A stretch of DNA of 64,000 nt, taken from the NCBI GenBank assembly GCA_965197475.1, contig CBDANF010000003.1, positions 64,001 to 128,000 of the forward strand. Reading direction: 5' to 3'. The notes under the pieces were generated by a model. That model ran no database searches and was not told where the DNA came from. It saw only the letters and a list, made by a program, of their open reading frames with translations. Both the position numbers and the translations under genes were made by a program. Each line of letters begins with the position of its first letter. The stretch's first letter is position 1. This DNA comes from Candidatus Poribacteria bacterium (GTDB lineage Bacteria; Poribacteria; WGA-4E; WGA-3G). Below, one piece after another: positions 1-49,632 of this stretch.

Positions 1-3000
1 CCTGTTGTCAAGGGAACAACGCATTTTAACGTAACAAATCTCCCCACTGAAGCAATAGATATCTACGTGTTGAATCAGGATAGTTTAACGGCAAAACTTG
101 TTGATGGGAAGGTAACGCGTAGCGGGAGCACTTACCAAATTCTGTTTGAGGATGAGGTGATGGGGTATACCAATTACTTCATCATTGCCAACAATGCCTA
201 TGGAAGTATTGGAACCCTTACTGAAGTGCCCCCAAGTAATTTACGTAACCCCACAACACAAGCGGATTACATTGTAATTACGCATAAGACTTTTTTAGAA
301 AGTATTAAACCCCTCGTTGAGTTTCGTCGCTCACAAGGCTTGACGGTCAAAGTCGTAGATATAGATGAAATCTACAATGAATTTAAAGCAGGACTTTTCA
401 ATCCAATTGCAATCCAGGATTTCTTGCGTTATGCTTATGAGGCATGGCAACCGCCAGCACCTACTTACGTTTTGCTCGTTGGTGATGCACATTTCGACTA
501 TAAAAGGGTTTTCAAACAACTCTACACAACATACAACCTCTACCCGATTTTTGTTCCCACGTACCACGGATGGGCACCAGCAAGCGGAGAAACCGCCATG
601 GACCAAAGGTTTGTCAATATCAGTGGTGCGGACGCTCTCCCAGATATGTTCATCGGTCGTTTACCAGTACAAACACCTGACGAACTTTCTGCAATAATAA
701 AAAAAATAAAAGACTATGAAGAAAACCCTAAAATTGGTCCGTGGCAAGGAACACTCGTCCAAGTAGCAGATAATCATACAGATAATCCCAACGATGTGAT
801 TTTTGAAGAGAGTCGTGACGAAATCATCAGTGAAATTATCCCTTTAGCCTATCACACAAAACAGATTTATTTGCGAAAGACCCGTAATTTAACTCGCTCA
901 CTTATCCGCAAGGCATTTAACGATGGCGCACTTGTGATTGAATATACTGGACACGGTGGCAGCCAAACCTGGGCAGATGAGTCCATCTTTCGGATCGAGG
1001 ATGTTACCGCTCTTCGGAACCGCGAACTACCGCTTGTTGTGACAACGACATGCTTGAATGGAAAATTTGATCAACCGCAACAATTTGGAGACCGCTGTCT
1101 CAGCGAAGAATTTTTGATCAGTCCGTATGGTGCGATTGCAAATCTTGCTGCAACACGGTTGACATACGCATCAGCAAACGTTGAATTTGATCGGGATCTG
1201 TTCACAGCAATGTTTGAAAGACCACCTGTCCAAACAGAAGGCGGACAACAGGCGCATACACCTCCTAACCCTACCATCGGTAAAATTATCACTGATGCTA
1301 AAATTAGTAACATCGCCCGCACCGTTAATATACGATGGATTCCAGGGACAGAACAGTACACACTTTTTGGGGATCCAGCAACACGACTCGCACTCCCCAC
1401 CCTTGATATACAGGTTAAATTGGAGGATATCGCGCTGAATTCCAACAAGCAGATTGTGATTCTGAACAATGAGGTAGGGACGTACGACGCAAACAATGTA
1501 TGGTGGAAAGCAGAAAATTTCAGCACAGAGAAACTCATCGCCTCAGCCATCTTCCACAATCATTTCGACGATGAACATGGAAATGAGATTCCCCAGCGCA
1601 CCCCACCACATAGAGTCTGGCAAGGTGAATATGGAACGATTCGGTTGGAGATTCCAAATGCGGCAGTACCCGGACGCGGTGTCGTTCAATTGCAGGCTTA
1701 TGATGATAAACGCGTAGCCATCGGGGGTGCTCCATTCTGGATAAAAACACCAATTATTGATCAAATTCTTGAACAAGTGGATGTTAAAACCGCACATACC
1801 TTTGACATTAAGGTTCTTATTTTAGACGATATCAACGGAGCACAAGGCATCAAGGAGATTTATGTGGAATGGATTAACACTTTTGAATATGATGACCATG
1901 AAACCCCGATGGTCAAAACTTCACCGCCTCCCGGTACTGCTGCCTCTCCTTATGGTGGTCAGTGGTACGAACTCCAAACACCCATCCCTTTGCCGAAAGG
2001 CGGACGCCAAATTCGGTACCGTATACACGTAACCGATAGCAGCGGTTTAGAAGTTCTGCACCCATCCGCAACAGAGCGGAGTATTTTTAAGGTGCCGGAG
2101 GGTCCCAACATAAAAATCGGCACTGATGGAAGCAGCCTCGCTCCAATCCGATACACTTTTAATGAGGAGACTGATAATTATTATCTCGTTGCAGAACTCG
2201 TTAATATCGGTGGACGAACGGTCAAAACCGATATAGAAGTCGTTTTTTCTGAAGGCAACCCAGATATTAATGGTGATTTGCAAATAGACGATGACGTTGC
2301 CATTTTAGTTAGAACAACTGTGCGTCCCTCAGAATGGGAGGAAGGCACCAACGTCTTACAACGTGTGACCTTAAGTGTTCCTTTAAAAGAAGCACTCTCC
2401 ACCGGTGCACATAAAATTTATGTTCTTGCTAATCCAGAAGTGGATACCACTGATGACATTACCGGTAGTGTCCAAGAACCACGTGTCTCTGATAACAAAA
2501 AATTTGTTTCATTCGTCGTTAATGAATTCTATTATGATCCATCGCAACCCTTAACAGCTTATAGTCTGGACAGAGTCTTTGACGTTGACATTCCCGATTC
2601 GGTGGCAGCACTTGAAGGTAAAAACATCCCACTCTCCATATCTTCAAGCGCACCGTTCACCTTAACTCAACCATCTCTCAGCTTCGCACCGATTCCACGT
2701 GTAGCCGCGCTGCGGCGAGGTCTGCTTCGCACAGGTGACGAACGTGCCCAACACTATGAAATGTCTTTTCGCACACCAAATGTCGCATTGAAAAAACCTG
2801 TCACCTTGAAGTTTCGGTTTGATGTCAGTGGCTTGGAGGACGCAGTTAGAGAGAACACCCCGTGGACTGAAGGCAGTAAGGACTTCAAGGCAGCGTTAAT
2901 TGAAGAAGCGGAAAAACTTAGCATTTATGCGTGGCAATCCGATTACAAAAAATGGAGACGACTTCCATCACAAGTGAGTTATGCCACTGGAAATGACAAA

Positions 3001-4770
3001 CCTCAACCTGATGAAGATGGACCAATATTCCAGCTCGAAAACTATGTTACACCTATCCAAACTGAAAACGCGAACAAACAACCTATCCCGATTGAAAACA
3101 TCAAAATTGATCAGTACGGGACACCTGCGGGGACATGGGTAATCGTTTTTTTCGATTCGACACAGTACGAGGTATACTTAAAACGGAATAATGAAGTCAC
3201 TGTTTATAAACTGAATCAACTCGGACAACTTGACATCCCCTATCGTGAAGAAAACTACGGACTTGAATTCATCATACATCAAGAATGGGATGTGCCACCA
3301 GAACTTGATGACGGAACACCTATTCTTCCCTTCGAATTTGGAGATATTCTCATCTTTGAAACTGATCGTTCTGAGGGCACTAACGCGGTCGTAGGAGTCC
3401 GTAATCAAAATATCGGGAACGGTACAGCTGTAATAACTGCAAAGCTCGGTCCCAAGCAAGAGTTTGTAGTAGGCGACTGGTTTCTCTTTTTCACATCTCC
3501 AATACAGTATGAAATTCGTGATAAAACAGGTGCCCCCATCTACCTACCGAATGATGCTCTCGTGCGCGGGACGGTCAATGAAGGCATGTTTGTCAGCCAT
3601 CTTGGTTTGGAAATATTCGTTAATAGTAGCACAGAATCTTTTCGATTTGGGGATAAGATTAAATTCAGCACCGCACAAGTTGCAAGTGTCACCGCACAAA
3701 CAACCGAACTTTCGCCGTTCACCCTTATTAGTGGTGATGACACAGAACCTCCCACTTTTAATCTATGGGTAGACGGTGTCCAGCCCCAAGTCGGTAGTGT
3801 TGTGGCACCGCGCCCACTTATCTCCATCTTGCTTGAGGATGTGAATGGCGTAGATTTGGATACGCTGATTATTCGGAGAGGAGATAACGGCAACCCGCTT
3901 AAACCTATCTCTGATTATATCTTCCGAAATCCCAAAAACGTTAACACAGTGCCGATTGACTACAAACCTATACTCTTTCCCGGTGAATATGCTTTTGAGA
4001 TTGAAGCGCGCGATTTTAATGGAAATGCAATTGGTGGGAAAACGAAAAAAAACCAGACGCGATTCATCGTGACCGACATGCCTGACATCACCCCGCCTGT
4101 CATCGAAATTTTTGTAAACGATGAAATTCTTATAGGAGAAGATTCAAACGTTAATACTCTTGGGGAAGTGAAGAATATTGGCAAAAACCGCATCACCCAA
4201 CAACCTCAATGTGAAATTCGGGTTACGGATGAAACAGCACTTGACGGTTCTCTCTTCAACATTACATTTAACCAAATATCTGATAGTGATCCTACACGAC
4301 GCTATCGCGAATTTGATGCGGCAAAATGGGAATTTGATGCTGATGATCCCGAAACTGCCAATTTTAGTTTTGCACCTGACCTCCCAAACGGCACCTATCG
4401 GCTACAAATAACAGCGACAGATACAAGTGAAAACACCGCCGAACTGGAAGCAACCTTCACCCTTGACGAGGAAGTCACCCTCAGCGAAGTTTTCAACGTA
4501 CCCAATCCCGTAGAAAATGGCAAAACCTTTTTCACCTATCAGTTGGCACAATCACCAGATAAGGTCACCATCAAAATTTACACGGTTAGCGGAAGGCTGA
4601 TTCGAACGATTGTAGATGAAAGTGCAAATCGAGGGAACAATGAGACCTATTGGGATGGAAAAGATGAGACAGGAGTGCGTTGTGCCAACGGTGTATACCT
4701 CTATCGTGTGATTGCCTACTCTGAGGGTGACAAGGCGGAAAAGATAGGAAAACTTGCTATCTTACGTTAA
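1..4770 (+). CDS. C25 (gingipain/PorU-like) cysteine peptidase with Ig-like domains and C-terminal FlgD-Ig/T9SS-type CTD; 5' end lies upstream of the window
   Basis: Frame is open from base 1. C25 motifs ADYIVITH, YVLLVGDA, IGRLPV, YTGHG (His) and TTTCL (Cys), LFGDP. C-terminus FNVPNPV...IYTVSGRLIRTI...WDGKDETG...ANGVYLY. Confidence 0.85.
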   Translation, partial: PVVKGTTHFNVTNLPTEAIDIYVLNQDSLTAKLVDGKVTRSGSTYQILFEDEVMGYTNYFIIANNAYGSIGTLTEVPPSNLRNPTTQADYIVITHKTFLESIKPLVEFRRSQGLTVKVVDIDEIYNEFKAGLFNPIAIQDFLRYAYEAWQPPAPTYVLLVGDAHFDYKRVFKQLYTTYNLYPIFVPTYHGWAPASGETAMDQRFVNISGADALPDMFIGRLPVQTPDELSAIIKKIKDYEENPKIGPWQGTLVQVADNHTDNPNDVIFEESRDEIISEIIPLAYHTKQIYLRKTRNLTRSLIRKAFNDGALVIEYTGHGGSQTWADESIFRIEDVTALRNRELPLVVTTTCLNGKFDQPQQFGDRCLSEEFLISPYGAIANLAATRLTYASANVEFDRDLFTAMFERPPVQTEGGQQAHTPPNPTIGKIITDAKISNIARTVNIRWIPGTEQYTLFGDPATRLALPTLDIQVKLEDIALNSNKQIVILNNEVGTYDANNVWWKAENFSTEKLIASAIFHNHFDDEHGNEIPQRTPPHRVWQGEYGTIRLEIPNAAVPGRGVVQLQAYDDKRVAIGGAPFWIKTPIIDQILEQVDVKTAHTFDIKVLILDDINGAQGIKEIYVEWINTFEYDDHETPMVKTSPPPGTAASPYGGQWYELQTPIPLPKGGRQIRYRIHVTDSSGLEVLHPSATERSIFKVPEGPNIKIGTDGSSLAPIRYTFNEETDNYYLVAELVNIGGRTVKTDIEVVFSEGNPDINGDLQIDDDVAILVRTTVRPSEWEEGTNVLQRVTLSVPLKEALSTGAHKIYVLANPEVDTTDDITGSVQEPRVSDNKKFVSFVVNEFYYDPSQPLTAYSLDRVFDVDIPDSVAALEGKNIPLSISSSAPFTLTQPSLSFAPIPRVAALRRGLLRTGDERAQHYEMSFRTPNVALKKPVTLKFRFDVSGLEDAVRENTPWTEGSKDFKAALIEEAEKLSIYAWQSDYKKWRRLPSQVSYATGNDKPQPDEDGPIFQLENYVTPIQTENANKQPIPIENIKIDQYGTPAGTWVIVFFDSTQYEVYLKRNNEVTVYKLNQLGQLDIPYREENYGLEFIIHQEWDVPPELDDGTPILPFEFGDILIFETDRSEGTNAVVGVRNQNIGNGTAVITAKLGPKQEFVVGDWFLFFTSPIQYEIRDKTGAPIYLPNDALVRGTVNEGMFVSHLGLEIFVNSSTESFRFGDKIKFSTAQVASVTAQTTELSPFTLISGDDTEPPTFNLWVDGVQPQVGSVVAPRPLISILLEDVNGVDLDTLIIRRGDNGNPLKPISDYIFRNPKNVNTVPIDYKPILFPGEYAFEIEARDFNGNAIGGKTKKNQTRFIVTDMPDITPPVIEIFVNDEILIGEDSNVNTLGEVKNIGKNRITQQPQCEIRVTDETALDGSLFNITFNQISDSDPTRRYREFDAAKWEFDADDPETANFSFAPDLPNGTYRLQITATDTSENTAELEATFTLDEEVTLSEVFNVPNPVENGKTFFTYQLAQSPDKVTIKIYTVSGRLIRTIVDESANRGNNETYWDGKDETGVRCANGVYLYRVIAYSEGDKAEKIGKLAILR

Positions 4771-10117: not shown

Positions 10118-11209
10118 CAGGACTTACGCAGTTTTGAAGATTATTGAAGGATTAGAGAGTTGATGTCGTCCGTAATCATCCAATAAACTTTGTTTGAGTT
10201 CGTAAATCGTTTGAGTGATTTTCCGGGCAGCACGCTTCAAGCAGACCCAGACCTGGAAACAACACGCAATATGGTTTCGTTGGGCACGCAGTTTGCGGCA
10301 TTGACATTTGTCAATACCGGTTAATTGTTTGATTTCACGATGAAGTTGCTCAATCTTCCAGCGAACCCGACACTGTTGTTTTGTCGCTTTCGCATCCGAT
10401 TGAGATAAATCGTTTGTCACAATATATTCCGTGCGTCCTGTATCAGACACAATCCGGAACAACTTCACTTGATACCCTTTTGGAAACCTTTTGATATGCA
10501 CGCGTTTGCCTTGTGTCGTTTCTGATGGAGACCAAGATAAATCTTTTTACTTGCTGGTGCGGTTCAACACCATCCGTATCATTTACAAGCCTGTTTCGTT
10601 TCAGGGGCGCATAGTAGACCTTGGAAAGTGCCGCAATCGCTTTCATTACTTTCATGGATACATACCAAGCATCCATTAGCACTGTCCGAAACGAGAGTTG
10701 TTTCTTGAAGTAAGCATCGTGCAACATATCAAGTAAATGATCAATTTTGGATTTACCATCAGGGTCTTTGTCAAAAATGCGGTAATCAATGATCCAATAC
10801 TCGTGTGTCTTTGGGTTAACATAGACACACGTGACAATACCGATGCCTTCAATGACCTTTTTGTCGCTACCACTCCATTGAGGGTAGGCAGCTTCAATCA
10901 GTTTTGAATATATTTTTGACAGCACAACATCGTCAAAGATAAGGTATCCATCTTTATCAAACGCAATGTCGTCTTTGACAGATTCCCAGAGTTCGCTTGA
11001 AGGAATGTTTTCGTTTCTCAGGAAACGATTGAGTTGATCATGGCTCCACTTCTCCGTATGGTTTGCAAAATAGGTTTGTGTAAAATTAGTGAAACTCGCT
11101 AACAAAAATTGACAATAATCAGAAAATAAGTGGTGCTTCTTTTTAGAAAGTGTAAATGTAGTCATAATAGAACAGTATAACATAATTGTAGATTATTGCG
11201 TAAGTCCTG
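10118..11209 (-). mobile_element. IS701-family insertion sequence with frameshifted transposase
   Basis: 13-bp perfect TIRs CAGGACTTACGCA and AATAA target duplication on both sides. DDE transposase split into ORFs 10443-11183 and 10124-10501 (LIFDD, VLMDAWY, RWKIEQLHREIKQ). Confidence 0.9.
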
Positions 11210-11288
11210 AATAATTATGAACACGCCTGATTTACATTTAAAAACTTAGTGATTCACCCACTAATATCCCTAATAGCTGAATTTGATA

Positions 11289-11317
11289 TTGCCGACTCGG
11301 CATAAATATGGTATCCT
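11289..11317 (+). promoter_or_regulatory. sigma70 promoter of rnpB
   Basis: TTGCCG-17 bp-TATCCT with TG, ~10 nt upstream of the RNA 5' end. Confidence 0.55.
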
Positions 11318-11329
11318 TAAGAAACGCTT

Positions 11330-11820
11330 GAGTTGAGTAGATGGTCGCGTCCCATATTGGGATGAGGAAAGTCCGGACTCCGCAGGGCAGGGTGCTGGGT
11401 AATCCCCAGGAGCGGCAACGTTATGGAAAGTGCAACAGAAAGCAGACTACAACGTATTATAGTAGATTTTAGAATTACTTGGACATTGTTATCGGTCCAG
11501 TTGGGAAACAGTTCCTACCGCATATTTTGTAGCACAAACTTTTAGTTTGTGTCGTCCTTGCGCAAACTGAAAGTGGACGCTACAGCAGTGTCCAGATAAT
11601 TACAGATTTTACTATAAACGTTGTACAGGTGAAACGGTGCGGTAAAAGCGCACCAGTCCATAAGGCGACTTATGGAGCTTGTAAACCCCATCTGGAGCAA
11701 GGTAAAATTGGGGACATTTAAGGGTGCCCGCCTCGTCCCCGGGTAACCGCTTGAGGTTAATGGCAACATTGATCCCAGATGAATGATCATCATATACAGA
11801 ATCCGGCTTATTCTCAACTC
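11330..11820 (+). ncRNA. rnpB: RNase P RNA (type A) with greatly extended P12
   Basis: GAGGAAAGTCCGGACTCC, GGAAAGTGCAACAGAAA, AGGTGAAACGGTGCGGTAA, TAAACCCC..GGAGCAA, CAGAATCCGGCTTA. P1 pairs GAGTTGAG/CTCAACTC. Confidence 0.95.
11460..11614. mobile_element. IS630-type MITE inserted in the P12 loop of rnpB
   Basis: 26-bp imperfect TIRs TAGTAGATTTTAGAATTACTTGGACA / TGTCCAGATAATTACAGATTTTACTA with TA on both sides. They resemble the ends of the IS630 at 48445-49352. Confidence 0.8.
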
Positions 11821-11908
11821 AAGCTTATCTATGGATACGTAAATATAAGGTATTAGTGGATGATACGGTGCGGTTTCCTAACCACACCTAATAAAGAATT
11901 ATTCAATA

Positions 11909-14362
11909 TTGTTTATGATTCAACAAAAATTGAAATATGCCATTTTGCGTAAGAAATCAGTCATTTTTTACGGATATGCATCATTATTCCTTTTTCTGAT
12001 TTTGTTATTAGTGTTTGTTTCGTTGACACCCAGTATCGGTGAAAACGGTACTCCGGACTTTGCAAAAGAAGGTGTCCCATTCTTAGAACAGTACTGCTTC
12101 GGCTGCCATGCTGGTGATCAACCCAATGCGAACCTTGCCCTTGACGCATTTAAAGACAACTTATCGTTGATCAAAAATCATGATGTCTGGGAGAGAGTCT
12201 TAGACATGCTAACAACAAACCAAATGCCGCCAGTGGATAGTGATCAACCACCGCTTAAAGAATTAGAAGCTTTTATCCAGCACGTTGAAGCAATTTTTGA
12301 GGACGCAAGTCGAACGACTAAACCAGACCCAGGTCGCATAACTGTCCGCAGACTCAACAGAGTTGAATATAGAAACAGCGTTCGAGATTTACTGGATGTT
12401 GATTTTGATCCCACTGAAAATTTTCCCGCAGACGATGTCGGTCACGGGTTTGATAATATCGGTGATGTGTTAACGATGTCACCATTGCTGATGGAACGGT
12501 ATCTTGAAGCAGCTGAGGCGATCGCAACCCGTGTCATTATAGTGAATCCACCGTTCCCATCCAAGCACTACCAAAACGTTACACGACTTGATCCACGGCA
12601 CAAAAATGTCCCTGATAAACGTTTTCGTTTACTTGATCCAACCGCAACAGAAGCGTGGGTGTCTGGTCCCTTTACGACAGACGCATCGTCTCTCAAATTC
12701 CTTGCAGATGCGGAAACATATTTCCGTGCCACGCTTTATGCCGAAACTGAAAGTGAAACTCCTGTTCAGGTCGCACTATTCATTCAAGGCAAGAATCTGG
12801 AACATGTGTCACCGCAAGAAGAACTTGCAAGGTTAGTCGGTTATGATCCTACTACAAAGAACAGAATCCAGATTCTCCAGATCTTTGAAATTACTGCCCG
12901 TGATCCGAAGAAGTTTCAAACAATTAGACATCTCGTTAGTCGTGTAGCAAATATTGATAATGCAGGAATTGCAATGGTAAAACCTGAAGATGGCGAACTA
13001 CAAGCAAGACTTCAAATTCGTTCCATCACGTCGGTAGGACCGTTGGAGACCAGACCAAAATCGCAACTCAAAATATTAGCCTGCACACCGGACATCCCCC
13101 AAGCAGAACAGACTCGTGAAGTCTTGACGCGTCTGCTGCGCAAAGCGTATCGCCGGACACCAACTGTAGAAGAAATTGAACAACTTGCCCAGTTTGTTGA
13201 ATCTGTTCAAGCGGATGGTGCTAAATGGGAAGCAGGTATTCAGCAGGCAATTAAAGTTATCCTTTGCTCACCCAAATTCCTATTTCGACTGGAGTTAGAT
13301 GACCGCCCACAAACCGAAGATGTTCGTCCAATAGATGAGTTTCAACTCGCGTCAAGGCTTTCCTACTTCTTGTGGAGCAGCATCCCAGACGACGAACTCC
13401 TTGAGCTGGCAGAGAAAAACCAGTTGACCGCATCGCTTGAGGCACAAGTGCAGCGGATGCTCGCGCATCCAAAAGCAACGGAATTGGCAAGTAACTTTGG
13501 TGTGCAATGGTTGCAAATCCAACGGTTAGAAACCGTTACACCTGATCCAGAACGTTTCCCAACTTTCAATCCCAAACTGCGCGCTGCGATGTTGAAGGAA
13601 ACTGAAATGTTTCTGGAATCAATTTTTCGTGAAGATCGGAGCATCTTTGATTTACTGGATGCGGACTACACCTTTCTCAATCAACGTTTGGCAGGACATT
13701 ACGGTATTTGGAAAAATGCGCAAGGAAAGCCGATTAAAGGGGATGCTTTTCAGCGCGTCGCGTTGCAAAATCCCACACGCGGCGGTATCCTAACCCACGC
13801 GAGTGTGCTGACGGTAACTTCAAATCCTACCCGCACCTCACCTGTCAAAAGAGGACGTTGGGTTTTAGAGCAGATACTCGGTTCACCTCCTCCGCCACCT
13901 CCGCCAGATGTTCCTGAATTGGAAGAAGATCACGATGCAATTACCGGAACCACCCTGCGAGAACGGCTTGAACAACACCGAGAAGACCCTGCTTGTGCCA
14001 ACTGCCACGCCAAAATGGACCCTATCGGATTTGCACTTGAAAACTATAATGCAATCGGTGCGTTTCGGAAGAAAGATGGTGAGTTAGAGATTGATGCTAC
14101 AGGACAACTACCAGATGGAACTTCATTTAAGGGTATAGCGGATCTAAAACAGATCCTCAAGAACAGAAAAGAACAGTTTGCACGATGTATAGCAGAGAAA
14201 ATGCTGACCTTTGCTTTAGGTAGGGGGTTAGAATATTACGACAAATCAACCGTTGATCGAATTGTTTCTCAACTTGAAACTAATGATTACAGAAGTTCTG
14301 TGCTGATTACAGAAATTGTCAAAAGTGACCCTTTCCGATTACGACGCGGTAAAAAGGAGTAA
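11909..14362 (+). CDS. DUF1592/PSCyt-PSD domain c-type cytochrome-like protein
   Basis: CFGCH and CANCH heme motifs, RRLNRVEYRNSVRDLL, LASRLSYFLWSS.PD, TSPVKRG. Start may be slightly downstream. Confidence 0.9.
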   Translation: MFMIQQKLKYAILRKKSVIFYGYASLFLFLILLLVFVSLTPSIGENGTPDFAKEGVPFLEQYCFGCHAGDQPNANLALDAFKDNLSLIKNHDVWERVLDMLTTNQMPPVDSDQPPLKELEAFIQHVEAIFEDASRTTKPDPGRITVRRLNRVEYRNSVRDLLDVDFDPTENFPADDVGHGFDNIGDVLTMSPLLMERYLEAAEAIATRVIIVNPPFPSKHYQNVTRLDPRHKNVPDKRFRLLDPTATEAWVSGPFTTDASSLKFLADAETYFRATLYAETESETPVQVALFIQGKNLEHVSPQEELARLVGYDPTTKNRIQILQIFEITARDPKKFQTIRHLVSRVANIDNAGIAMVKPEDGELQARLQIRSITSVGPLETRPKSQLKILACTPDIPQAEQTREVLTRLLRKAYRRTPTVEEIEQLAQFVESVQADGAKWEAGIQQAIKVILCSPKFLFRLELDDRPQTEDVRPIDEFQLASRLSYFLWSSIPDDELLELAEKNQLTASLEAQVQRMLAHPKATELASNFGVQWLQIQRLETVTPDPERFPTFNPKLRAAMLKETEMFLESIFREDRSIFDLLDADYTFLNQRLAGHYGIWKNAQGKPIKGDAFQRVALQNPTRGGILTHASVLTVTSNPTRTSPVKRGRWVLEQILGSPPPPPPPDVPELEEDHDAITGTTLRERLEQHREDPACANCHAKMDPIGFALENYNAIGAFRKKDGELEIDATGQLPDGTSFKGIADLKQILKNRKEQFARCIAEKMLTFALGRGLEYYDKSTVDRIVSQLETNDYRSSVLITEIVKSDPFRLRRGKKE

Positions 14363-40642: not shown

Positions 40643-40838
40643 TACCCAATTACCCCGATTTGTAGCGCGAGGTCTCCGGGTCCTCCTCACAATGCTGACT
40701 TTATCCGAAAACTCCGAATCAAGTTAATGTGGTATTATACCCAATTAACGGGATTTGTCCTATTTTCCGGACGGTAGGTACTGTTTCCTAACCGCACCTA
40801 ATACCAAGAAAAATGAGATAAATCAAGTTAATGTGGTA
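40643..40838. mobile_element. Two tandem family-A MITEs (40643-40734, 40738-40838) with different REP cores
   Basis: Both run TACCCAATTA...AATCAAGTTAATGTGGTA. The cores are GTAGCGCGAGGTC and GTAGGTACTGTTTCCTAACCGCACC. Confidence 0.75.
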
Positions 40839-47720: not shown

Positions 47721-49632
47721 TTACTTTGTGTTCTCTGTTTTCAGTTCTCCCCAAAGCGTAGTCAGTCTATTTTCAGGGTCAACAGCATACGCTCTACTCG
47801 ACCAATCATAAATGAGTAAGAATTTAGACACACCATCCAATATTTTTTCATGCACACCCCCACTTAATGGAACTGCAATGTTGCTTTCAAGACCTCTATT
47901 GCCGCTGTCAATAACTTGGTAAATGATATACTTTCCATTAGGCGACCATTTAAGTCCTAAAAACCACGTGTGCTCTTGAAGTCCTTTGATGGTATGCCAG
48001 ATACGCAGGTTATGAAGTGAGACAATACGAATTTCATCTGCAATCTGTACGAAGTCATGCAGACGATCTGAAGAAAAAGCAAGTTTTTTGCCATCCGGTG
48101 AGAAAACAGGCATGCTACCTACTTTGCTGATATGTATAGTTTTTTCAGTTTTGATATTAAATACAAACACACCTTCAGCGGTGTCGTAAGCGATCTGCGT
48201 TCCATCCGGTGACCAAACGATATTGGTCGCATTTACTTCTTTTAGCAGTGTGATTTTTGGCGACGCTTTTTTCAATTCACGATGGGGTATGAAATAGATT
48301 CCTTTCCTCGGAGGTAGGTTTCCATCGTCAATCAGGCTGTTCACGAAAACGATATCTCCGTTTGATGAGATGGCGATATCGGAAACCTCATCAAATCGAT
48401 TCTGTGTTAACTTGAGTGCTTTTAGTGGAACCTGATTTGTATTATAGTAGATCCTGAAAATAAGTTTACATTTTCTGTGATTTATGTTAGCCTTTATGAT
48501 TATGGCATATTCAACAGATGGACGCAAACGCGTGCTTGATTTCATCAATAATGGTGGCAGTAAAGCCGCCGCAGAACGCACTTTTCGTGTCTCAAGAAGA
48601 ACGATCTATAACTGGTTGGAAGCAGAAGACCCCTTCGCCTGTGAAAAACCGGGACCCAAAGGTCCCCGAGATATTGATTATGACGCACTTCAGCAACATG
48701 TTGCCGATTTCCCAGATTCCACACTCGCCGAACGTGCCAAACACTTCGGTGTTTCAACAAACGGCATCTTTTATGCCTTCTCAAAACTCAATATTACGCG
48801 AAAAAAAAGACAACGACCTACAAAGAACAGTGTCCGATAAAACGCCAAGAGTATCTTTCGGCACTTCAACAAGAGACACAGGAGCATGGCAAAAAACCGG
48901 TTTATCTTGACGAAAGTGGTTTCACTGAAACCACTTTCCGTCGGTATGCTTATGCCCCGAAAGGTGTCCGTGTTGAAGATAAAGTGCCAAGCCATCGGTA
49001 TACCACCACGACGCTGATTGCGGCACGGCTTGATGGATGTTTCACAGCACCTGTGCTTTTCAAGGGCAGTTGCGATGCGGTCGCCTTCAACAGTTGGCTT
49101 TCGGAAATGTTGTGTCCATTGCTTGACGATAGCCATGTTGTGATTATGGATAATGCGTCTTTCCACAAAGGTTCACAGACAGCAGCATTGATCCGGGATT
49201 GCGGTGCAAGTTTGTTGTTTTTACCACCGTATTCACCGGAGTTGAATCCGATTGAGAAGGATTTCGCCAACATCAAGCGGATACGTCAATACAATGCTCA
49301 GACTTCTATTGATGATATTATAAAAGTGTATAAGTAATTACGGGATTTACTATAATAAGGTAAACTTCGGTTTCAAAAAACTTTTCATCGCTGGTATCAA
49401 TGATGGTGATAAGAGGGCCATTTTTTTGTGCGGATATGCCCAAGATACCACCAAAACGTATTTCATGTCTAAAAAGCAGGCGTGTCTTGTCAGCGTTGTT
49501 GATGTTGGCGATCCATAATTCGCTCCAATGAGATGGGTGTCCCAAGATTACTTCCCCAGTGATCTTGGCATGTGTTGTGAGTGGCAGGAAGAAAATCAGA
49601 CATAGACAAAGACATTTGAGAAAGTATTTCAT
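47721..49632 (-). pseudogene. TolB-like/PD40 beta-propeller exported protein disrupted by IS630
   Basis: Removing the IS plus one TA rejoins EVYLI-NTNQVP in frame. WSPDG/FSPDG repeats, C-terminal AVDPENRLTTLWGELK. Confidence 0.85.
48445..49352 (+). mobile_element. IS630-family IS, apparently intact (programmed -1 frameshift)
   Basis: TA duplication, TIRs TAGTAGATCCTGAAAATAAG / TAATTACGGGATTTACTA. OrfA HTH, A-tract at ~48800. The -1 frame is open through YLDESG, MDNASFH and LPPYSPELNPIE. Confidence 0.92.

Follow-up and report, generated by a model that had tools for sequence, protein, structure and literature searches.

The window considered here is a stretch of 64,000 nucleotides from a Candidatus Poribacteria bacterium (assembly GCA_965197475.1, contig CBDANF010000003.1, positions 64,001 to 128,000), and it contains rnpB, the gene for the RNA of the essential tRNA-processing ribozyme ribonuclease P (RNase P), interrupted by a miniature transposable element with inverted repeats (MITE). 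A cmscan search of the whole window with RF00010, the model for bacterial class A RNase P RNA, gives one match above the gathering score of 100 bits, at 11329–11825 on the plus strand (277.4 bits, E 1.6e-89), which covers the model in full from position 1 to position 367. The gene measures 497 nt with the insert and 340 nt without it, and the alignment places all surplus bases between model positions 136 and 137, which mark the apical loop of helix P12; the initial annotation of this locus as an RNase P RNA with an insert in P12 is thus borne out. The native P12 stem is formed by 11448–11455 and 11618–11625 (plus strand), as given by both the cmscan structure line and the minimum free energy (MFE) pairs of the full RNA. 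The local sequence reads ...ACAGAAAGCAGAC TACAACGT AT TA, then the element at 11460–11614, then TA A ACGTTGTA CAGGTGAAACGG. The two TA copies of the target-site duplication, to which no strand applies, lie at 11458–11459 and 11615–11616; the left copy, in a TTAA context, is recognised from the flanks of MITE and insertion sequence (IS) copies and from empty-site-like loops in congeners, and the right copy from the window sequence and a comparison of MITE flanks. In-silico excision of the element with one TA yields the short hairpin TACAACGT-ATTAA-ACGTTGTA, and both the layout and the restored hairpin that had been proposed are reproduced. A weak promoter-like sequence, TTGATA-18-TATGGT, was found just 5' of rnpB at 11283–11312 on the plus strand by a consensus scan (9 of 12 positions), and no terminator-like site was found within 11150–12000.

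The 155-bp element (11460–11614, plus strand) is bounded by terminal inverted repeats (TIRs) of 26 bp at 11460–11485 and 11589–11614 (both plus strand), which match each other as inverted repeats at 19 of 26 positions. It belongs to a multicopy family in the genome of its host (hereafter G000; 5.70 Mb in three contigs), where a DNA search recovers 13 full-length copies and one additional truncated copy. Twelve full-length copies, including that in rnpB, are 100% identical and the remaining one is 99% identical. All 13 share the flank context TTA|TAGTAG...TACTA|TAA, which corresponds to a TA duplication in a TTAA-like target. At the sites from which the element was excised computationally (12 full-length copies and the truncated one, with the 99% copy left out), there is mostly no long open frame running across, or the site lies no more than nine codons from the end of the frame, so the family sits mostly between genes. 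Other species of the genus have related full-length MITEs (74–90% identity) that share the TIRs and are likewise flanked by TA; together with the identical copies in G000, this indicates that the family is old in the genus and that its burst in G000 is very recent. The exact left TIR was found in public genome contigs at 12 loci in 10 records, all of them metagenome-assembled genomes (MAGs) of Poribacteria. At the level of sequence, the insert in the P12 loop of rnpB is confirmed as a MITE of the IS630 type that is flanked by a duplicated TA.

With a size of 155 bp the MITE leaves no room for a transposase; the coding sequence of its IS630 partner takes up about 850 bp. A candidate autonomous partner lies within the window at 48445–49352 on the plus strand, a 908-bp IS630-family IS flanked by TA at 48443–48444 and 49353–49354. 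It is one of 16 full-length copies in G000 (907–922 bp, 91–100% identity), which are accompanied by truncated ones, and terminal TAGTA...TACTA sequences and TTA|...|TAA flanks occur at all 16, as in the MITE. The right end of the window IS matches the left TIR of the MITE at 18 of 26 positions and the right TIR at 19 of 26, exactly the figures obtained by hand in the initial annotation, and the right end of a second IS subfamily matches the right MITE TIR at 21 of 26. The left MITE TIR reaches 17–18 of 26 against IS ends, and MITE-to-IS identity spans 17–21 of 26 overall. This likeness is far from chance level: about 200,000 random genomic 26-mers gave a mean of 6.9 matches, with a fraction of only about 4e-5 reaching 17 or more.

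The window IS had been described as intact, a term that needs qualifying, as its transposase is spread over two overlapping frames. A helix-turn-helix (HTH) domain is encoded in open reading frame (ORF) A at 48484–48840 (PF01710 HTH_Tnp_IS630, E 4.1e-29), and a catalytic DDE domain in ORF B, a stop-to-stop frame at 48684–49337 (PF13358 DDE_3, E 1.4e-31), which also scores 110.4 bits (cut-off 100) with the NCBIfam model NF033545, "IS630 family transposase"; both ORFs are on the plus strand. The two domains are in frames 0 and −1, which overlap at a run of eight A residues (48801–48808, plus strand) that frame analysis of the 16 copies marks as a candidate −1 slippage site, and a −1 shift there is needed to join them. 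The run is A6, A7 or A8 among the 16 copies, none of which unites HTH and DDE in a single open frame; in copies with A7 a frame of 278 aa is open, the N-terminal part of which is not the HTH frame. Expression of the transposase would presumably involve slippage at this run, and the variation of the run suggests either such expression or that many copies are defective. The IS copy at 48445–49352 may be functional. The suggestion that the MITE is still mobilisable agrees with its intact TIRs and target-site duplication and with the presence of 16 IS copies carrying HTH_Tnp_IS630 and DDE_3 ORFs, and these copies may mobilise it in trans. Searches of G000 for a better autonomous parent by tblastn with both IS ORFs returned only the 907–922-bp family and a distant 667-bp repeat. 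The latter, rejected as a parent because its ends are unrelated to those of the MITE, has 12 copies with 92–99% identity (e.g., C2:238560–238754 and 11 other loci), and its 214-aa frame shows a distant likeness to the DDE part of ORF B (33–38% over 68–93 residues). Three sites with a near-identical left TIR were also rejected as parent candidates and are solo ends or other small elements.

The age of the insertion was assessed from rnpB genes across the phylum. An RF00010 search of 151 genomes, one per species, found a match in 142. Within the genus, a match is present in 36 of the 38 other genomes, all of 339–350 nt and without the insert, and the two genomes lacking a match are drafts of 320 and 140 contigs. 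A detailed alignment shows a short P12 in 16 of 16 genes. Two congeners (G002 and G012) have an empty-site-like P12 loop, TACAACGT-ATTAAA-ACGTTGTA, compared with ATTAA at the restored site here. The nearest rnpB is that of G024 (94% identity), in which the sequences flanking the gene also align to the window on either side, with the element as the only large gap. Because a short P12 is found in all 36 congeners with a match, the insertion is, by this comparison, recent and lineage-specific.

Long RNase P RNA genes occur elsewhere in the family, with rnpB lengths of 440–537 nt in nine other genomes. Six species of a sister genus, g9 (G146, G127, G061, G136, G109 and G150), share a branched P12 extension of about 150 nt, the sequence of which shows no relation to the MITE in the window (example locus L109:304–480 of G146). 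This extension is single-copy in the five species searched, which do not include G150, and the other four of these have 85–94% identity to the G146 query. It folds into a rod with three hairpins and 63 predicted pairs, two of them with compensatory changes, and it may be the fossil of an older insertion. Retention of these extensions indicates that long P12 rods are compatible with life in the family. In G080, G093 and G119, extra sequence is present in the loops of both P3 and P12; in G080 the P12 extra (G080:C1:333292–333937, 305–384) contains a hairpin unit of about 31 nt, to which the same genome has at least 39 more matches. In G113, which belongs to the same order, rnpB (G113:C5:5970311–5973564, 201–3054) appears to be interrupted by a group II intron some 2.5 kb long. 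In the coordinates of that locus, the 5' part of the gene extends from 201 to about 418 and the 3' part from about 2904 to 3054; the intron has a weak match to domains D1–D4, ORFs of 201 and 451 aa, and domains D5/D6 at 2827–2903 (RF00029, 67 bits).

Several lines of evidence bear on whether the insert-bearing gene works. No second rnpB is found with RF00010 in the three-contig G000 genome, the completeness of which (92.7%) is on par with that of single-contig congeners (92–95%). The gene for the protein subunit, rnpA, is present (PF00825, 115 bits, G000:C3:3501382–3501693, in an open frame of 121 aa), and G000 has no match to PF08745 (PIN_5), which we take to be the family of the protein-only HARP enzyme. 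In a 37-sequence alignment of the genus, the window rnpB has two private changes at otherwise invariant columns, compared with 0–6 in the 36 congeners, and its core thus appears to bear no sign of decay. The P12 region with its insert (11447–11628) has a predicted folding energy of −70.6 kcal/mol (z = −9.3), and none of 200 shuffled sequences folds as well. For the opposite strand of the same interval the values are −50.5 kcal/mol and z = −5.1; the RNA of the rnpB strand is about 20 kcal/mol more stable than its complement, a difference of which G-U pairs are presumably the source. In a partition function computed for the 497-nt RNA, the element has 57.1 expected pairs with itself and 0.00 with the remainder of the molecule. 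The predicted fold of the full RNA keeps the pairs between 11448–11455 and 11618–11625, and the two TA copies pair with each other. Thermodynamic folding therefore supports, as a prediction, the earlier proposal that the TIRs pair to extend P12 coaxially. According to PMC11779636, P12 lies at the periphery and undergoes large spatial motions in solution. We infer that the insert-bearing RNA could be catalytically active and that its transcript would remain full-length and uncut.

The account that we consider probable as a whole is that a MITE recently entered the P12 loop of the single rnpB gene of this sponge symbiont and is tolerated as a self-folding rod. A non-autonomous IS630-family element would have transposed into the TTAA of the P12 apical loop, with duplication of the central TA, and so into a peripheral, length-variable helix of the specificity domain. 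As the element is almost perfectly self-complementary, its transcript would be expected to fold on itself, forming a rod of about 45 bp with a branched tip stacked on P12 and leaving the catalytic core and tRNA-binding surface untouched. The insert would then be a tolerated passenger, either neutral or mildly costly. Several observations weigh against this account. Purifying selection may so far have had too little time to act on so young an insertion, and in a symbiont population that goes through bottlenecks an allele of mildly deleterious effect could persist. G000 is a MAG with an estimated contamination of 6.97%, and its source sample also holds more abundant relatives with a short-P12 rnpB. 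Among the contigs listed for the public sequencing runs, none bridges the rnpB–MITE junction with at least 31 letters on each side, so that the junction rests on the assembly. When JGI metagenome contigs were scanned for exact matches to the left flank and to the right junction, the results were 0 and 0, which is no evidence either way, and the public runs examined hold no RNA evidence for the form of about 497 nt or for its activity.

These points could be read to mean that rnpB with the insert does not serve a viable cell line as its working gene, being instead an assembly artefact, a minor allele in a mixed population or a crippled ribozyme. Beyond the contamination estimate, such a reading draws on the greater abundance of short-P12 relatives in the same runs and on the lack of the junction both from the contigs listed and from any independent assembly. 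Four public runs were examined as Logan contigs, which break at the repeat, and the best holders contain 0.53 of the sampled words. In two of them (X1 and X2, "organism A"), the own-strain flanks are present with 0 differences at depths of about 14 and about 95, and the MITE is also present with 0 differences. The depth of the MITE contig is about 10–17 times that of the own-strain flank in two runs, which fits the assembled copy number. The T at position 11421 of the window occurs in no contig of any of the four runs, so the own-strain rnpB body is not represented in them, probably owing to a more abundant relative. Joints such as 11455 to 11616 with GCAA between them were rejected as empty-site alleles, as they are the short P12 loops of relatives. 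In two sponge metatranscriptomes (X4 and X5) the MITE is found at low depth and with 0 differences, next to flanking letters that are common to most copies or come from another copy and are uninformative on rnpB. An artefact or non-functional allele is nonetheless improbable. The junction has an internal logic, with a perfect target-site duplication and a restored hairpin like those of G002 and G012, which a mis-join would not create, and the exact own-strain flanks in two runs, the lack of another rnpB or a HARP match in a three-contig genome as complete as single-contig congeners, and a core without an excess of private changes all argue against such a reading.

The fate of the transcript raises a further alternative, namely that the insert is transcribed and then cut out, leaving a ribozyme in two pieces, which tertiary contacts and what remains of the P12 stem would keep together. 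A precedent exists in Thermodesulfatator indicus, in which, according to PMC9945441, the native host and also Escherichia coli cut out a P12 expansion of about 70 nt, and in which a short P12 in place of the expansion impaired complementation. In favour of this alternative, the MITE rod is a long and nearly continuous duplex that is AU-rich near its base. This alternative is unlikely, although it has a real chance, since the duplex-cutting RNase III is undetected in G000 and in its order (RNase E and other RNases were not looked at). G000 has no catalytic-domain match to TIGR02191, PF14622 or PF00636. Its only TIGR02191 match, of 21.5 bits, is to the double-stranded RNA-binding domain (dsRBD) and lies in the frame of a 175-aa protein; no match to PF00636 was found anywhere in the genome. 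PF14622 was found in none of 31 genomes (G000 and 30 relatives), in a search for which controls were positive in 8 of 14 well-known genomes. A loose scan for RNase III signature motifs gave no credible match in G000; two matches were rejected, one read as ribose-phosphate pyrophosphokinase-like without a family scan and one in a 19-aa frame. Across the 151 genomes, the deeper families f5–f9 have full-length TIGR02191 matches (156–259 bits) in 9 of their 11 genomes. The order to which the window belongs (families f1–f4) has no such match in any of its 139 other genomes, of which 31 have partial matches to the dsRBD end of at most 38.5 bits and 108 have nothing. As the same method detects RNase III in families f5–f9, the order-wide lack is probably real, with a very divergent enzyme as a possible exception. 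The lack of a full-length RNase III in the order would remove the usual enzyme that cuts such a rod.

The element had also been called domesticated, that is, selected as a P12 extension for a role in folding, localisation or protein binding. This idea has some appeal from the conserved long P12 extensions of genus g9 and from the beneficial P12 expansion suggested for T. indicus in PMC9945441. It is very improbable, and the claim does not stand, since the rnpB copy is 100% identical to 11 others scattered through the genome, mostly at sites without a long open frame, is absent from the 36 of 36 same-genus rnpB genes found, and shows no copy-specific changes that could mark adaptation. On sequence grounds the insert is a young passenger and not a co-opted part. 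The verdict is that of a real and recent IS630-type MITE in the P12 loop of the sole rnpB, which is most likely tolerated as a self-folding rod and is not domesticated.

A broader reading joins the MITE to the other long rnpB genes described above. Under this reading rnpB would be a recurrent landing pad in a sponge-associated order, loss of RNase III would make the inserts harmless, the MITE-bearing RNA would be full-length and fully active, and the g9 extension would be a fossil left by an earlier event of this type. Such a combination is tentative and, taken as a whole, rather doubtful. If it is true, the MITE in the window (as an active element), the G080 hairpin repeat, the g9 extension and the G113 group II intron would all be cases of the same landing pad, and long double-stranded inserts in stable RNAs would no longer be cut in a lineage without RNase III. 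The apparent absence of RNase III offers a testable reason for the permissiveness of the lineage, and it would also bear on how ribosomal RNA (rRNA) is processed and on how hairpin repeats spread through these genomes. The case itself is a natural experiment in which a transposon has been caught, probably within a very short evolutionary time, in the only gene for an essential ribozyme, and there in the one helix that is peripheral and mobile according to structural work. It provides an allele pair, the insert-bearing gene and a congener's or insert-less gene, for testing how far RNase P RNA tolerates a foreign duplex. Together with the older, fixed P12 extensions of sister lineages, it suggests that expansion segments of structural RNAs can be born from mobile DNA.

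Comparisons with known systems help to place the insertion. Short repetitive sequences arranged in tandem (STRR) were reportedly described by Vioque in 1997 inside rnpB of heterocyst-forming cyanobacteria, at a site said to be P12. STRRs are short tandem heptamer repeats without TIRs, a target-site duplication or a transposase partner, whereas the insert here is one MITE, bounded by TIRs, which has duplicated its TA target and has an IS630 element as partner. Nezha, an IS630-derived MITE of Anabaena and Nostoc, is a small TIR element that duplicates TA and is present in many copies alongside a partner of the IS630 family in the same genome. The element in the window resembles such IS630-derived MITEs in its TIRs, TA duplication, copy number and IS630-family partner. 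In bacterial 23S rRNA, intervening sequences in helices are removed by RNase III, which leaves a fragmented rRNA. The rnpB insert is like these in that it extends the tip of a peripheral helix, belongs to a structural RNA that is essential and forms a long stem, and it differs in that RNase III is undetected in its lineage. Like the P12 expansion of T. indicus, it is large and lineage-specific, affects a class A RNA and is lacking in the closest relative; unlike that segment, which is excised after transcription and is not described as mobile in PMC9945441, it originates from a MITE. Open-access full-text searches yielded no published case of a MITE in rnpB, nor of an IS630-derived MITE in any other ribozyme gene, and a 2024 review of MITEs (PMC10969869) makes no mention of RNase P, tmRNA, rRNA, ribozymes or IS630. 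The Rickettsia palindromic element (RPE) had been cited in the initial annotation as a further precedent for insertions in rnpB, for which an open-access full-text search found no paper.

Within the MITE lie two modules that belong to wider repeat populations. The first, at 11494–11520 on the minus strand, is related to a dispersed hairpin repeat with the consensus CGGTAGGTGCGGTTTCCTAACCGCACC, and its match of 23 of 27 positions to the reverse complement of a reference copy at 40772–40798 (plus strand), which had been named a repetitive extragenic palindrome (REP), is reproduced. Repeats of the 40772 type number 71 in the genome at no more than five mismatches, compared with 0 for each of five shuffled queries. 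A further copy, recognised by comparison with the family consensus, lies at 11866–11892 on the plus strand, about 40 nt 3' of rnpB. The second module, a GTAG...CTAC unit at 11529–11583 on the plus strand, is present as proposed and forms the distal 15-bp hairpin of the predicted rod; it also occurs outside MITE copies and across the genus. Its two halves have 47 and 28 genome copies at no more than four mismatches, 14 of each inside MITE copies. The description of the MITE as carrying REP hairpins holds in that both modules are related to dispersed repeats and needs qualifying for the REP-like one, the hairpin of which appears degenerate: manual pairing leaves several stem positions of 11494–11520 mismatched, and the MFE structure uses a 5-bp hairpin only. 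The GTAG module resembles the GTAG-tagged REPs of PMC3733652 in starting with GTAG, ending with CTAC, forming a hairpin and being dispersed. It differs from them in travelling inside a TIR-bounded element and in having no Y1_Tnp gene within 1.5 kb. The genome has two Y1_Tnp genes, with no copy of either module within 1.5 kb, and an association of the GTAG module with a REP-associated tyrosine transposase (RAYT) was rejected accordingly.

Other parts of G000 contain sequences allied to the MITE. Element positions 100–126 recur at least four times with a spacing of 36 bp in a tandem array at G000:C3:3466046–3466261, outside the window. Smaller elements of 78–127 bp with TAGTA-type TIRs and mostly TTA/TAA-like flanks occur at C3:1964091–1964212, C3:885757–885883, C2:212301–212379 and other sites, and about 200 unpaired TIR-like ends are also present. 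The small TAGTA-ended elements suggest that several MITE families use the same transposase.

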